A stretch of DNA of 64,000 nt from Eledone cirrhosa (Eukaryota), in assembly GCA_964016885.1 (NCBI GenBank), contig OZ024741.1, positions 314,092,001 to 314,156,000 of the forward strand. Direction: 5' to 3'. The first letter of the stretch is position 1. Each line of letters opens with the position of its first letter. The position numbers were made by a program, and so were the translations under genes. Below, one piece after another: positions 9,834 to 42,750 of the stretch. Under the pieces are notes generated by a model. The model searched no databases. It was not told where the DNA came from and saw only the letters and a list, made by a program, of their open reading frames with translations.

Positions 9834-9927
9834 ACCCCGACGGCTGAGCTCAAGCCGTTTCGACGGCTAATTCTGGACTGAAAGAAAATTTCTTCTGGTA
9901 TTTAAATAGCCGAGCTTATCAAGGGGT
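9834..9927 (-). ncRNA. Type I hammerhead ribozyme, U3-A8 core variant
   Basis: ACCCC-TTGATAA-gctCGGCTA...TAGCCGtc-GAAAC-GGCT tgagctc AGCC-GTC-GGGGT. Confidence 0.8.
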
Positions 9928-10428
9928 AATTCCATATATGGTCAAAGAGATAATCACCAGGATTGGTCACATCACAAGTTAGTAGTAAATCTGTGATGGC
10001 AAATTGGTGGGGTAAGGGGTAGCTAAACCTGCCGGTAGGAGAAAAAGGGGGAGGGGGTGGAGTAGACCCATTCATGCGTTGGTAGTGCTGGCTACAGCTG
10101 GGCGTGAGGTCAAAGAGGATACTGGGGAGGGGGAGGGGCAGGAAGTCAAAACGGTAAGAAGAACAATGAAGGGTAAAACAATAAAAAGTACTGAGAATGA
10201 AAAAAAAAATAAGCAAAGTCTGGTTAATAAGACTTAAGTCTCTCGCTATTGCTAGGCTAAAAAAATACATAAATAAATATATAAATAAACAAATAAGTGG
10301 ATAAAAGAATAGATAAATAAATAAAAAAATAAAAAAAATATAATAAAGAATAAAAAAAATAAATAATAATAATAAAAATAAACTAGGTGGGACGGAAATA
10401 AAGGGACCCTTATACGAGGTATAAGTGC

Positions 10429-12261
10429 GTGTATCGTACGGTGACGGGTCAACAAAGGGGAGCCAAAATACTAAAGACACTACCACGAACAAATAATTGC
10501 AGCCTAAACTCCACCTATAAAAAGGCTAACCACTCATGCATCGAGGACATTAATCGAGATGGACAACAACTTACCTCCAGCCTCGGGGTGGCCGACCGCA
10601 CCGAACCCCTAGACCCACGGACACCCTACTTCACACTGAAGGACCACAAATCCGATTTCGACCGTAAACCTTCTATCAGGCTTATAAACCCAACGAAGTC
10701 CGAAATAGGGAGAATCAGCAAAAAAATCCTAAACCGCGTGATACCAAAAGTCAAGCAACACGCCCGACTTAGCCTATGGATCAACACCCAGGAAGTTATA
10801 TCATGGTTCAGCAATATGGAGGATAAACGAGACACTAAATTTATCCAGTTCGACATAGAGAGCTACTATGCTTCAATAACCTTACCGCTACTTACTGCCG
10901 CCTTGGACTTCGCCGAAGCACTTGTGCCTATCACCGACCAGGAAAGAAAAATCATCCTCCACGCCAGGAAGACAGTCTTACTCTTTAACAACTCCAAATG
11001 GATAAAAAGAGCTCCCGACTCACCCTTCGACGTCAGCATGGGCGCGTCGGATTCGGCGGAGGTCACAGATCTTATAGGATTATTCCTTATAGCCAAACTC
11101 ACCGATATGTTTCCTGCTTTCGGTGGTGGATTGTACCGTGATGATGGGCTCCTTACCCTTAAAGGTTACAACCCCAGTAGTACAGATCGGGTCCGTAAAC
11201 AATTAACCAGCTTCTTCCGCGACTGGGGATTTAAAATAACCCTACAAACGTCCCTGACCCGAGTTAATTTCCTGGACGTTACCCTTGATCTCAATAATGA
11301 CCTGTACTACCCATACAGGAAACCCAATGACAACCTGCACTACATCCACCGCCGATCTAACCATCCTAGGAACATCACCAACAACCTGGTCAAAAATAGC
11401 TCCCTCCGCATATCCCGTTTGTCAGCTAATGAGAAGATATTCGATGAACATGCGCCTTACTACAACCAGGCCCTCAAGCGGAGTGGTTTCCGGGAGGTAA
11501 TATCCTACTGTCCAGCTCCCATTAGCGGAACCAGCAGGCGACACCGCCGCTCACGCAATGTAACATGGTTCAATCCTCCCCACAACGCCGAGGTGACAAA
11601 TCCCATCGGGAAAATTTTCTTTAGGCTCATTGAAAAACACTTCCCACTACAACACCGCTACCACAACATAATTAACAAAAATACCATCAAACTCTCATAC
11701 AGCACTACACCTAACTTCGCACAAAACATCGTCTCCTCCAACAACAAAAAACTCAACCCCGATGGAAGAAATAACCTAAATAGCAGTGGAGAGCCGACCA
11801 GGAGGTGAAACTGTCCTGATAGATCCAGTTGCCCCCTCGACAACCGATGCAGAGACCGTAATGTGATCTACCAGTGCAACGTGAGCACGGAAACCTCCAA
11901 CAAAGCTTATATAGGATTAACCGAACGTGACTTCAAGACCCGGCTATACCAACACAGACATACCTTCCAAAACCCGGCCCGGCGTCACGCCACTACACTT
12001 TCAGGCCATAAATGGGACCTCAAGGACAACAACATCAACTATGATCTCACTTGGAAATTACTGTCCAGAGCCAAGTCTTACACGGGAGGACGCCGTCCGT
12101 GCAATTTATGCTCGGAGGAAACTTTACAAATGCCGTTTTCGACGGACCAACTCCTAAACAAGAAAGATGAACTGGTTACTGCATGTAAACACCGATTACG
12201 TCGGACTTACCTCGCCCTCAAACCCCATAATGACCCGGGGGTGGGGGGGGGGGGGGGGTAG
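10429..12261 (+). CDS. PLE reverse transcriptase plus GIY-YIG endonuclease, one in-frame TGA at 11806-11808
   Basis: QFDIESYY, FDVSMGASDSAEVTDLIG, GLYRDDGL, VNFLDVTL, WFNPP; after the TGA the same frame continues NCPDRSSCPL..C..NVIYQC..YIGLTE..FKTR..H..CNLC; true N-terminus missing. Confidence 0.88.
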
Positions 12262-13640
12262 ACTAGGGCTATAACACCCCACTTGCCTATTTTGTAATGG
12301 GTAACCCCTGCTTGCCAATGGAGACGTAAGATCTTCTTTTACATTCTTTTATCGCTTCCTCTATATTTCCTTCCCCCCCCCCCATCCCTCAGTAGTCCTT
12401 CTACCCCAGTTCCTTTTCTTTGTCGTCGTCTTTTTCTCGCCCACCCGAGGTAGCCCCTCGGTCCCTTGTAGCTTCAGCACCCCCACCCCCTCCCCTATTC
12501 TATGATAGATTTGGCTGACTCCGCTTCTTATAGCAGAGGTGTTAGACTTCGGATACTTGCCCCCTTCTCCGACCGCTGTCCCTTTTTTCCGTGCCTTCTA
12601 TATTTCTTAGTGGCATCTTTGCTTTAATTTCTCGTTTATCCAGTATTTCTTTCTTCTTTTTCTTTTTTTTTTTGGGGGGGGGGGTCTGTATTAATTTCCC
12701 GTTCTTTAATTTTACTTCGTACGACCTTTCATGTAGCTTGTATAAGACTTTTTGTTTCGTGGCGGTACCCTTAGAGTTAGCATTAGTATTATATTCTCGT
12801 ACTAGTTTACTTTCTCGCACTGGGTGGTTGCTGGCCCTGTGATTGGGGTAGAAACCTTTATTATTTCGTGGTAGTCTCTTTAGTATTTCCCCCCCCCCCT
12901 TTGTTGACCCGTCACCGTACGATACACGCACTTATACCTCGTATAAGGGTCCCTTTATTTCCGTCCCACCTAGTTTATTTTTATTATTATTATTTATGTT
13001 TTTATTCTTTATTATATATATATTTTTTTATTTATTTATCTATTCTTTTATCCACTTATTTGTTTATTTATTTATTTATGTATTTCTTTAGCCTAGCAAT
13101 AGCGAGAGACTTAAGTCTTAGTAACCAGACTTTGCTTATTTTTTTTTTCATTCTCAGTACTTTTTATAGTTTTACCCTTCATTGTTCTACTTACCGTTTC
13201 GACTTTCTCCCCCTCCCCCTCCCCAGTATCCTCTTTGACCTCACGCCCAGCTGTAGCCGCCACTACCAACGCATGAATGGGTCTACTCCACCCCCTCCCC
13301 CTCTTTCTCCCACCGGCAGGTTTAGCTACCCCTTCCCCCAACAATTTGCCATCACAGAATTACTAGTAACTTGTGATGTGACCAATCCTGGTGATTATCT
13401 CTTTGACCATATATGGAATTACCCCTCGATAAGCTCGGCTATTTTTTAAATATATATATATATATATACATAAATATACACATATACATATATATATATA
13501 TATATATATATATATATATATATATATATATATATATATATATATATATATATAGTACGTTATTCCGGGTTGAATCGGAGGTAACCACAGTAAGTAAGGT
13601 ACTCAATACATAGCAGAGTATAAAAGTTTTAATATAGAAG

Positions 13641-13691
13641 ATATTCTACAGGACTAGAACTGTTTCATTCTTTAGAAATCATCAGGAATCT
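13641..13691 (-). ncRNA. Type I hammerhead ribozyme
   Basis: agattc-CTGATGA-tTTC taaa GAAt-GAAAC-AG ttctagtc CT-GTA-gaatat. Confidence 0.8.
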
Positions 13692-40899: not shown

Positions 40900-41825
40900 T
40901 TCTCCCTCTGCTCTATTTTTCTCTTTTGCTAACGCTTTACTAAACCTAATGAACATTATTTTAATTATCCTTCTCAGGGCGAACCACCATTTGTTGTTGT
41001 CGATTGCACTCGTCAACGACCACTTAACTAGTTCGCTAATCCGGTCTCTGTAGCCTTTGCAAACTGTCAACGACGTGTTTAGCTTCCAGTAGACGGGTCC
41101 CTCTCTATGAAGCTATCTAAGTCAACTACACTGGCCACGACCTTGTGGTCTGTGTCGTCGACTATTTTGAATTGTAGACAACATATGCTAGAACTATCTA
41201 TTTCCTTACAAATACTCTATCTAGATACGATCTGGATGACCCGAAGCGGTTTGACCATGTCCACATTCGCACATTCGGGAAATCCAGTCGGTACCTGTCA
41301 GATAGTTGGAAACGTCTTAGTAGGTTTGCGAGGCTTTTACACCCTCCTCCCCTATTCGCTAATACTACACAATACCAGCGTGAACCCAATATCCCGTTCC
41401 AATGGCCCACTAATATTAAAGTGCGGGGTGTTCCCAGGAAGGTTTCCAGTCGCCTGAAGAAATCAGGCCGTCCTGCCTCTGTCGGGGCATAAACAGCCAC
41501 CAGCCTAAAAGTATAGCCTTCGCTGCTGGTCACGTCCAGCACCACCGACTTACCTTTTGGGTACAGGAAGATGGTCCGTATCACGAGATCCAGGACTCTC
41601 CGAAATAACACAGTGAGTCCGCCTCCTGATCCCGGCCGGCTTGGAGATGCCTACACATCGTAACCACCGAAGATGTGTGCGAAGGCATGTGCCTCGGAAC
41701 TTCTGGTCTCCCTGATGGCCACTACATCTATGTTCATTGACACGTGGTCAGTGAGGAGGTGACCCTGCTTCTAGGACGAACCTAGGCCACGTGCATTTAT
41801 GATGCTTATTCTGGGTAAGGTCATT
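40900..41825 (-). mobile_element. L1/Tx1-like LINE ORF2 fragment (APE endonuclease), decayed
   Basis: SIINARGL, VVAIRET, LVAVYAP..RPDFF, SYLDRVFV, DHKVV. Confidence 0.75.
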
Positions 41826-42256
41826 TTATTTAGACCCTAATGCATTTTAATCATTCAAAGTGGCTAAATACAAATGACTAATTACAAATTTTGCAAAGAA
41901 AACGAACAGATAAAAGAGATACAACTCTCTGTTCCCACTAAATATAAAATTCTCAGCTCCCACGACCACATTTTCGCCAAATCCCTCCCACCACCACATT
42001 TACATACACTCAAGTCAACCTCCAATCTATTTATAGATAAAAGTCACTGACCTTGAAACATAAGCAACCTGCTACCAACCACACTACTTCATGTGCTGAA
42101 TAAGTGTAGGTATATATATATATATATATATATATATATATATATATATATATATATATATATATATATATATATATATATATACATTATGAAGAGAGAA
42201 GAAACATTTAGATATAATTAGTAATAAAATGTATCATACCTAAACTGCTCCTAGGT

Positions 42257-42346
42257 TCCTCGACTACGTAGTTTCGTGGCATAAACAAAAACAGTACATC
42301 ATAAAGATATAGAGCCTTTGCGAGCTCTGCCGACTTATCAAGAGGA
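42257..42346 (-). ncRNA. Type I hammerhead ribozyme, U3-A8 core variant
   Basis: TCCTC-TTGATAA-GTcGGCA...TGCCAC-GAAAC-TACGTA-GTC-GAGGA; palindromic stem III ACTACGTAGT. Confidence 0.8.
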
Positions 42347-42662
42347 TACCTCATTTTACTAGCCTCAAGAACGCGTCTACACGACGTGAGAAAGAATCCC
42401 ACAAGGCGGAGGGGAAGATCGTCACGCGAAGTGTGGTGACTGCTGGAAAGCTGCCATTACTCATACTTCTCGCCTCCCTTACCACCTCTTCTACGGCTTC
42501 GATATAAATACCCCCTCCGCCTCCGTGGTATTTTCTTCGGGGTTATAAGAGGCTTAGCTCTGTTTCTCGACCGTTATATCGCGTGACGATCTCCCCCTTC
42601 GCCTTTTGGGATTCTTTCTCACGTCGTGTAGACGCGTTCTTGAGGCTAGTAAAATGAGGTAG

Positions 42663-42750
42663 CCTCTTGATAAGTCGGCAGACCTCGCAAAGGCACTATA
42701 TCTTTATGATGTACTGTTTTTGTTTATGCCACGAAACTACGTAGTCGTGG
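42663..42750 (+). ncRNA. Type I hammerhead ribozyme, U3-A8 core variant
   Basis: cctc-TTGATAA-GTcGGCA...TGCCAC-GAAAC-TACGTA-GTC-gtgg (one stem I mismatch). Confidence 0.72.

Follow-up and report, generated by a model that had tools for sequence, protein, structure and literature searches.

The genome of Eledone cirrhosa carries three repeat families in which UUGANAA is the majority state of a hammerhead core, with U3-A8 in place of the canonical C3-G8. This core is the norm of the families and not the outcome of independent decay. New here is that about a quarter of the copies of one family (family 1) have a C3.A8 mismatch and yet were amplified, and that an old subfamily of family 1 has a U3.G8 wobble. 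We consider it likely that the motifs are hammerheads belonging to a Penelope-like retroelement and to short non-coding tandem repeats which the element likely mobilises, with self-cleavage predicted to occur after GUC.

Under this explanation, U3 and A8 would form a Watson-Crick pair as the canonical C3-G8 does and would position nucleotide 8 in the active site. Two copies may pair through the palindromic sequences of helix III or loop 3, whether within tandem arrays of 592-bp and 317-bp units or within long read-through transcripts. RNAs of unit length would be released by cleavage, and for the tandem families these would likely take the form of circles. The integration step itself probably does not need cleavage.

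Hammerhead motifs in the window

The window is the 64,000-nucleotide stretch of contig OZ024741.1 that was analysed. Motifs and associated repeats are as follows.

9834–9927, minus strand: copy A, family 1 hammerhead motif, TTGATAA at 9916–9922; the MFE fold is a three-way junction
27256–27349, minus strand: copy B, family 1 hammerhead motif, subfamily GA, UUGAGAA; the MFE fold is a three-way junction
27241–27616: element fragment of copy B, adjoining (TA)n at ~27200–27245
42257–42346, minus strand: copy C, family 2 hammerhead motif, TTGATAA
42663–42750, plus strand: copy D, family 2 hammerhead motif, inverted partner of copy C, TTGATAA, core intact
42182–42820: two 248-nt pieces of the 592-nt family 2 unit in inverted orientation, adjoining (TA)n at ~42107–42186
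13421–13444, plus strand: truncated family 1 hammerhead start, UCGAUAA, cut off by (TA)n
43068–43151, minus strand: canonical C3-G8 hammerhead motif of a different repeat, CUGACGA, GUA site, palindromic helix III
42979–43282 and 43450–43761: inverted repeat that carries the canonical C3-G8 motif
8959–9057, minus strand: long hairpin containing TTGATAA and GAAA, rejected as a hammerhead

The earlier note had reported UUGANAA motifs at the positions of copies A to D, and TTGATAA or TTGAGAA, GAAA and GUC are indeed present in all four. Each copy reads UUGANAA...GAAA...GUC in the type I hammerhead arrangement, which has the full core with C17, and three helices of which helix I is open. The core nucleotides (U4 G5 A6, A9, G12 A13 A14, A15.1-U16.1) are present throughout, the NUH triplet is GUC in 4/4 copies, and U3-A8 is a state able to form a Watson-Crick pair.

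Copy A consists of ACCCC, UUGAUAA, helix II and GAAA, followed by helix III (CGGCU/AGCCG) with the palindromic loop UGAGCUC, then GUC and GGGGU. Its helix II is built from G-C, C.U, a bulged U and CGGCUA/UAGCCG, with a 37-nt insert, and the predicted cleavage point lies 3' of the C at 9839. Copy B has A-U at 10.2-11.2 and G.U at 15.3-16.3. Copy C reads UCCUC / UUGAUAA / GU(C)GGCA...UGCCAC / GAAA / palindromic CUACGUAG / GUC / GAGGA. Copies C and D are arms of an inverted repeat (42182–42429 and 42579–42820, 94% identical).

We used a structural descriptor that combines helix I of at least 4 bp, helix II of at least 4 bp, helix III and a UH site. Its U3-A8 form has three matches in the window, namely copies A, B and C, which satisfy it with all three helices. 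Copy D fails the descriptor due to damage to helix I, where two of the five pairs of its partner copy C are broken (CCUC/GUGG). Thus, the view that stems I to III are well formed in all four main copies holds for A, B and C but not for D.

A scan of the window with Rfam hammerhead models returned zero matches, whether at the gathering score or at E ≤ 10, which bears out the expectation that CUGANGA-based searches miss such variants. The compact motif of family 4 (below) gave sub-threshold scores with Hammerhead_HH9 (31.1, 24.3 and 22.2 bits, E from 1e-4 to 0.09), the best of them, 31.1 bits, lying under the threshold of 52; coming from an independent model, these scores count in favour of the hammerhead reading. 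In this one animal genome, the hammerhead-like motifs overlooked by CUGANGA-based descriptors and Rfam models number over ten thousand.

The Penelope-like host element

The window also contains a Penelope-like element beside copy A.

10402–12261, plus strand: Penelope-like element ORF, reverse transcriptase (RT) with YRDDGLL and GIY-YIG with VIYQCNV...YIGLT
12858–13444, plus strand: element 3' UTR, ending in the truncated hammerhead start, then (TA)n at ~13450–13555
9819–10496, minus strand: inverted, 5'-truncated copy of the 3' UTR with copy A, left arm of a head-to-head structure

The ORF has one in-frame stop at 11806–11808. Positions 9904–10496 match 13444–12858 at 94% identity. The element hammerhead is on the sense strand, ~1.1 kb downstream of the RT/GIY-YIG ORF and ~22 nt upstream of the 3' end. 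The sense-strand location behind the ORF is seen in the window (ORF 10402–12261 and hammerhead start 13421, both plus strand) and at locus L145, where an intact 695-aa relative is encoded (ORF 757–2841, hammerhead at 3934, both plus strand). Copies of the element are paired head to head, their hammerheads pointing outwards, and family 1 copies are inserted into (TA)n.

Atlas look-alike clusters of the element ORF carry GIY-YIG and RVT_1; Pfam and PDB searches with the element protein gave zero matches. The protein (P0004) has the motifs SDKTGN, CNCPDRSIC, VIYQCNV(10 aa)YIGLT, CNLC and CKH, and an N-terminal motif that reads RWR. Among the Hydra-clade features listed by Craig et al. (2021, PMC8557442) are GIY-YIG without CCHH, DKT, CxCX5C, CxxC, CxH and (TA)n. 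The element here shares the C-terminal GIY-YIG without CCHH, DKT replacing DKG, the CxCX5C linker, CxxC and CxH close to the end, (TA)n as insertion target and the presence of a hammerhead. It differs from the clade as described there in having RWR instead of RWK, and in its U3-A8 core, since the Hydra-clade hammerheads are called canonical (PMC8557442). Family 1 sits at the 3' terminus of a Penelope-like element that encodes RT and GIY-YIG and bears Hydra-clade motifs.

State of the 3-8 pair

Exact-pattern counts over the 3.0 Gb genome for family 1 are 5070 for U3-A8, 1559 for C3.A8, 43 for U3.G8 and 9 for C3-G8. A 3-8 state able to form a Watson-Crick pair is therefore present in 76% of exact-pattern copies and absent in 24%, and A8 is retained in >99% of the 6,681 pattern copies. 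When the 7 core positions were left free, YUGANAA was found in 99 of the first 100 of 5984 family 1 matches, and 24 of these first 100 were C3.A8. With a core-free pattern, family 2 has TTGATAA in 99 of the first 100 of 6142 matches. In family 4, TTGATAA makes up 97 of the first 100 of 1075 matches. A canonical consensus in these families would have pointed to decay of single copies, and it is not what the family 1 counts and the family 2 sample give.

The 3-8 pair is not strictly kept, given the 1559 C3.A8 copies (23%) and the old U3.G8 subfamily. The C3.A8 mismatch is expected to impair catalysis. As C3.A8 copies form large subfamilies on the backbone of the family 1 tree, amplification of the family did not need the 3-8 pair. 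Position 7 is the core position that varies, and it is the only core position that is free in hammerheads. G7 occurs in 16/20 sampled C3 copies versus 18/42 U3 copies of family 1.

We tentatively raise a further reading, which we think is rather doubtful: that within one genome a single retroelement lineage contains each of the four 3-8 states as subfamilies or copies (an old U3.G8 state, U3-A8 as the dominant one, C3.A8 in large subfamilies and C3-G8 in sporadic copies), position 3 having changed two or more times along the family tree backbone. If so, the lineage would document in nature the swapping of a base pair in the catalytic core. Self-cleavage would then be dispensable for amplification of Penelope elements in vivo, or C3 lineages would rescue the core differently, possibly through a register shift that pairs C3 with G7.

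Structure of the families

Family 1 has a helix III of 5–6 bp with a 7-nt loop, whose palindrome is UGAGCUCA. Palindromic helix III sequences among the families are ACUACGUAGU and ACAAGGCCUUGU. A9 is followed directly by G10.1. In families 1 and 2, helix II carries a 37–45 nt insert, and a bulged pyrimidine comes after 10.2. Helix II is closed by G-C (G10.1-C11.1) in families 1, 2 and 4. Helices I and III differ between families by two-sided changes that keep pairing. Families 1 and 2 are distinct, as the earlier note had proposed. Independent swaps in each are not supported; the two share the core and the design of the helix II base (G-C, one further position, bulged pyrimidine, GGC/GCC).

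Family 2 is a retrozyme-like tandem repeat with a unit of 592 bp, a spacing of ~591–592 bp and up to 5 units in a row. Family 4 is a third U3-A8 family, found in the flanks, with a compact 45-nt motif, a tandem spacing of ~316–317 bp and up to 6 units in a row. Metazoan non-LTR retrozymes were reportedly treated by Cervera and de la Pena in 2020. Unlike tandem retrozymes, the family 2 copy in the window is an inverted pair of truncated units.

Constraint was measured in 82 family 1 copies, sampled with a pattern that left the 3' half of the motif free to vary. Minor-allele fractions in this half are 0–9% (GAA 2.8%, A15.1 0%, loop III 4%), and are 11.5% in loop II and 20% in the 16-nt tail. The two commonest stem variants change G-C to G.U.

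Alternative explanations

Chance matches of a loose pattern in AT-rich DNA would be a trivial source of such motifs. The bare pattern TTGANAA...GAAA...TC has 17 matches in the window versus ~6 expected, and chance fits both the U.G match at 35230–35323 and the hairpin at 8959–9057. The latter had been taken for a degenerate member and is rejected: GAA stands where a U-H triplet is needed before the 3' strand of helix I, the helix II base has only 3 bp, the sequence folds as a single long hairpin, and it shows no likeness to the other copies. For copies A to D chance is already refuted and has a negligible probability, as the full descriptor gave a mean of 0.3 matches (maximum 2) in 30 dinucleotide-preserving shuffles of the window and the real copies come from families numbering thousands. 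It is also possible, but very unlikely, that the motifs are inert relics, in which C3U and G8A arose by chance in a master copy and the dead motif was carried along in young, near-identical repeats. Most copies are very young (40/40 scored BLAST matches are 98–100% identical), so their identity is by itself a poor guide to selection. Against relics, the same core state occurs in three families and in family 1 subfamilies with 19% of their loop II positions differing, changes within stems keep the structure, and A8 is nearly invariant among the pattern copies.

A less unlikely alternative, although still an improbable one, is selection for a structured RNA with a role other than self-cleavage, for example a site near the 3' end that binds or positions the element's RT/endonuclease. 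The core would then be conserved because the protein recognises the hammerhead fold, and the 3-8 pair would be of minor importance. This agrees with the amplification of at least 1559 C3.A8 copies while the remaining core and the stems stayed conserved. It also agrees with the position of the motif, ~22 nt from the 3' end, where cleavage would cut off a terminal tail still present in all genomic copies. The Anolis Poseidon element (PMC11167929) offers a parallel: cleavage required the element's protein, hammerhead mutants had no effect on insertion in vitro, and RNA-seq ends at the site were not seen. These Poseidon results also weigh against the favoured explanation, as do the C3.A8 subfamilies, the absence of Rfam matches for the window copies and the poor cleavage of Penelope-element hammerheads in vitro (PMC4209133). 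Against a role other than self-cleavage, exactly the hammerhead catalytic nucleotides and GUC are conserved in three families with differing stems, variation falls on position 7, which hammerheads leave free, and the 592-bp and 317-bp tandem arrays fit processing into unit-length RNAs.

Comparison with known hammerheads

The notion that U3-A8 is rare in nature does not survive comparison with published work. Natural covariation from C3/G8 to U3/A8, with cores already active in vitro, was reported by Perreault et al. in 2011 (PMC3088659). Those variants show the same compensatory covariation at positions 3 and 8; the passage describing them states no link to a Penelope-like element, unlike the situation here. 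Cervera and De la Pena (2014, PMC4209133) then reported U3-A8 in Penelope-element hammerheads of Schistosoma mansoni, with ~1,300 matches, and poor in vitro cleavage by Penelope-element hammerheads. With the swap in print since 2011–2014, ours is an ordinary new example, and its main point, being already known, matters little as a discovery. The modest new value lies in the family structure, with large C3.A8, old U3.G8 and dominant U3-A8 lineages within one element. These lineages are ready-made natural variants for testing the weight of the 3-8 pair in cleavage, and could also test whether cleavage matters for Penelope-element retrotransposition.

For the hammerheads that we attribute to the Penelope-like element and its tandem repeats, a close parallel is Cercyon of S. 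mansoni (PMC4209133). In both, U3-A8 replaces C3-G8 in thousands of copies, located on the sense strand in the terminal repeats or 3' region of an RT/GIY-YIG retroelement, with opposite-strand pairs a few hundred bp apart. Also shared are a long helix II, the G10.1-C11.1 closing pair and a palindromic helix III or loop 3. Cercyon has a minimal helix III, in contrast to the stable one of family 1, and differs from families 1 and 2, which carry the helix II insert. Its unpaired nucleotide lies between 9 and 10.1, compared with the bulged pyrimidine after 10.2. Further differences are the Hydra-clade motifs of the host element here and the quarter of copies with C3.A8.

Families 2 and 4 resemble metazoan non-LTR retrozymes (Li, Clavereau and Pollet, 2026 preprint, 10.64898/2026.07.22.740005) in having short, putatively non-coding units, head-to-tail arrays and a type I hammerhead per unit. 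They differ from those retrozymes in their U3-A8 core. As with metazoan retrozymes (10.64898/2026.07.22.740005), a Penelope-like element with the same (TA)n target is present alongside both families.

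Hammerhead motifs in the window

The window is eukaryotic sequence with 35% G+C and numerous (TA)n tracts, drawn from an assembly of 3.0 Gb. The motif with U3-A8 in place of C3-G8 at core positions 3 and 8, which an earlier note had picked out by eye, is present in four main copies:

9834-9927, minus strand: copy A, family 1 (3' end of a Penelope-like element)
27256-27349, minus strand: copy B, family 1
42257-42346, minus strand: copy C, family 2 (592-bp tandem unit)
42663-42750, plus strand: copy D, family 2

Copy A reads, 5' to 3', ACCCC, UUGAUAA, a long helix II, GAAA, helix III, GUC and GGGGU, which is the layout of a type I hammerhead. 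Its helix II consists of G-C, C.U, a bulged U, CGGCUA/UAGCCG and a 37-nt insert, and its helix III of CGGCU/AGCCG closed by the loop UGAGCUC. The minimum-energy folds of copies A and B are exactly the hammerhead three-way junction. A structural descriptor requiring the core, three helices and a U-H site matched copies A, B and C; 30 dinucleotide shuffles of the window gave a mean of 0.3 matches (maximum 2). Thus, the description of all four copies as having well-formed stems holds for A, B and C but not for D, which the descriptor rejects because two of its five helix I pairs are broken. Rfam identified no hammerhead in the whole window at the gathering score, and none at E<=10 in 8800-10100 and 42100-42900, where the only matches were low-complexity, miRNA-like and within (TA)n.

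Two further candidates were rejected. The supposed degenerate motif at 8959-9057 lacks a U-H triplet, and the base of its helix II is no more than 3 bp long; it is one plain long hairpin, unrelated to copies A-D. A descriptor match with a U3.G8 core at 35230-35323 is also a plain long hairpin.

Core state across the genome

Copies of family 1 were counted in the whole genome using exact 20-mer patterns anchored on helices I and II; the reversed-pattern controls gave 0 matches.

Core states of family 1, whole genome
U3-A8: 5070 copies
C3.A8: 1559 copies (1568 with C3 and a purine, less 9)
U3.G8: 43 copies
C3-G8: 9 copies

When none of the seven core positions was specified, family 1 gave 5984 matches, and the first 100 listed comprise 75 UUGANAA, 24 CUGANAA and 1 CUUAGAA. 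Family 2 gave 6142 matches (99 UUGAUAA and 1 UUGAUGA among the first 100 listed). A third U3-A8 family, family 4, was found in the flanks of loci sampled from elsewhere in the genome and gave 1075 matches (97 UUGAUAA among the first 100 listed). UUGANAA is the family state. The earlier note had allowed that the families might have a canonical consensus, with the window copies as independent decay mutations; these counts therefore dispose of that explanation.

The U3-A8 core itself is not new. Perreault et al. (2011, PMC3088659) describe covariation from C3/G8 to U3/A8 in several natural hammerheads and note that the in vitro activity of cores of this kind had been established before. The same covariation is reported, with about 1,300 hits, for Cercyon Penelope-like elements of Schistosoma mansoni (Cervera and De la Pena, 2014, PMC4209133). 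The Cercyon hammerheads are described there as opposite-strand pairs with a long helix II and a palindromic helix III. Set against them, those studied here have a long insert in helix II, a helix III that is stable in family 1 and host-element motifs of the Hydra clade, and their bulge follows 10.2, whereas the extra nucleotide reported in Cercyon precedes 10.1. A literature search combining G8A or C3U with hammerhead returned nothing relevant among openly accessible papers. The observation worth keeping is that U-A, C.A and U.G states coexist in one lineage.

The Penelope-like element carrying family 1

Three features of the window make up the surroundings of copy A:

9819-10496: inverted, 5'-truncated piece with copy A at its outer end, mirroring the element 3' UTR at 12858-13444 (94% identity)
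10402-12261, plus strand: element ORF with the RT motif YRDDGLL and a GIY-YIG endonuclease, with one in-frame stop
13421, plus strand: start of the sense-strand hammerhead (UCGAUAA), cut off by (TA)n

Another locus of the genome, L145, holds a relative whose 695-aa ORF is intact. This ORF encodes DKT, a CxCX5C linker, GIY...YIG with no CCHH between, and CxxC and CxH near the end, and family-1 copies adjoin (TA)n. The same features, including (TA)n, are listed for the Hydra clade of Penelope-like elements (Craig et al., 2021, PMC8557442), except that the RWK given for the N-terminus of that clade is RWR in L145. The hammerheads of the clade are canonical according to Craig et al.; here, an element with Hydra-clade motifs carries U3-A8. 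In the supplement of that paper, the matches to U3-A8 strings were fortuitous ones within coding or other sequence, although FASTA line breaks can hide matches. Pfam assigned no family to the pieces of the window ORF or to the intact 695-aa ORF, and a PDB sequence search gave nothing below E=1.8. Look-alike clusters in a protein atlas carry GIY-YIG and RVT_1.

The elements form head-to-head pairs, 0.5-4 kb apart, with the hammerheads facing outwards. An inverted arrangement has already been described for Penelope-like elements (PMC4209133, PMC8557442). At one locus (L146, G000:C1:60451500-60455400), pieces of the GIY-YIG ORF lie on both strands between two outward-facing hammerheads (243 aa on the plus strand, 240 aa on the minus strand); here, therefore, two copies of the element are joined head to head within the coding region.

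Families 2 and 4, and a canonical neighbour

Family 2 units of 592 bp occur in head-to-tail arrays of up to five, and also as inverted pairs; in the window, an inverted pair of 248-nt pieces adjoins (TA)n. Animal non-LTR retrozymes share this anatomy, and they have been argued to derive from Penelope-like elements (2026 preprint, 10.64898/2026.07.22.740005). Family 4 forms tandem arrays of a unit of ~317 bp. Its motif is compact (44-45 nt), with a 4-bp helix II and a fully palindromic helix III, as at L010:59-103 (+) and L007:2291-2334 (+). The 1075 exact-pattern copies are unevenly divided between the strands (703 forward, 372 reverse). Rfam Hammerhead_HH9 matches family 4 below threshold (31.1, 24.3 and 22.2 bits versus 52).

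Also present, 700 bp from the U3-A8 pair of family 2, is a motif of a different repeat family, inside the inverted repeat 42979-43282 / 43450-43761:

43068-43151, minus strand: canonical C3-G8 hammerhead motif with CUGACGA, a GUA site and a palindromic helix III, ACUGCGCGGU

A variant of it was identified at L004:1237-1330 (-). Both core types thus coexist in this genome.

Positions 3 and 8 within family 1

A maximum-likelihood tree was constructed from 82 family-1 copies (411 columns), with the columns for positions 3 and 8 removed. The tree is a ladder: an old clade of U3.G8 and U3-A8 subfamilies, two C3.A8 subfamilies, and U3-A8 subfamilies that include copies A and B. The topology requires a minimum of six position 3 changes, and two of these fall on the backbone. 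The median terminal branch is 0.24-0.38 at the U.G / AT end, the oldest, versus 0.02-0.05; these values do not order the other subfamilies. Since this is so and the root is a midpoint root only, we claim no direction for the C3/U3 changes.

In the old subfamily (e.g., L131, L132, L136 and L137), U3.G8 wobble is truly the majority state: with positions 3, 7 and 8 free, all 23 copies have U3, and the bases at position 8 are 17 G, 4 A, 1 C and 1 U. This subfamily could be an intermediate of the swap from C-G to U-A, or a later offshoot; the tree gives no order. Most of the nine C3-G8 copies are dispersed through the C3.A8 subfamilies, which fits chance A-to-G changes in individual copies. The C3.A8 lineages number well over a thousand copies and, whichever the direction of change, the rest of the motif stayed conserved in them.

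Among the sampled family-1 copies, position 7 is G in 16 of 20 with C3 versus 18 of 42 with U3; as the copies are kin, this reflects one or two events and has no statistical weight. One idea it prompts is that C3 may pair with G7 in a shifted register.

Constraint on the motif

Variation was measured in 80 copies taken by position in the pattern listings (the first 20 C3.A8, the first 40 U3-A8, all 9 C3-G8 and 11 of the 43 U3.G8), together with the two window copies. Because the sampling pattern dictated the sequence of the 5' half, that half is uninformative, and the values refer to the free 3' half.

Minor-allele fraction in the family-1 sample
G12-A14: 2.8%
A15.1: 0%
Stems: 4-9%
Palindromic loop III: 4%
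Loop II: 11.5%
16-nt tail after the motif: 20%

In the stems of family 1, the two most frequent variants change G-C to G.U. Between families, helices I and III show two-sided changes that keep pairing. The helices were parsed family by family because a cross-family MAFFT alignment placed the family 1 GAAA out of register with the other families. The 15.2-16.2 pair is C-G in every family, and helix III or its loop is always palindromic, a property linked to action as dimers (Cervera and De la Pena, 2014, PMC4209133).

Self-cleavage or a structural role

The best reading, we infer, is that published for this class, a predicted self-cleaving hammerhead in which U3-A8 would stand in for C3-G8. Its substrates would be long or multimeric transcripts, cleaved after GUC, and in the tandem families cleavage would free unit-length RNAs. 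In the window, the predicted cut sites follow positions 9839, 27261 and 42262 on the minus strand. In the main rival, to which three points lead, the same fold would have a structural role in binding protein. The motif lies ~22 nt before the element end, and cleavage there would strip off a tail that every copy still has. The C3.A8 lineages thrived. In the Anolis Poseidon element, hammerhead mutants are reported to have had no effect on insertion in vitro, and cleavage to have needed the protein of the element (PMC11167929). An intact ORF was found in 0 of 3 C3.A8 and 1 of 4 U3-A8 full-length candidates examined, a sample too small for any conclusion.

Other repeats in the window

A whole-window repeat search was dominated by microsatellites, and a BLAST comparison was used instead. 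Adjoining copy A is a near-perfect palindrome of 365 nt (9236-9600, 97%), which yields spurious sub-threshold Rfam matches (WsnRNA46, MIR6027). A tandem repeat at 22211-27149 (unit ~507-510 bp, copies 92-96% alike) stops just before a (TA)n tract and copy B. Also identified was a 736-nt inverted repeat at 32014-32749 / 33515-34250 (also 32136-32774 / 34046-34684), with arms 99% complementary and separated by 765 nt, and with no hammerhead descriptor match inside. ORF fragments at 2082-3386 (+) and 41198-41650 (-) encode an Exo_endo_phos endonuclease domain (E 9e-7 and 1.4e-5) and are probably remnants of LINE-type retrotransposons.
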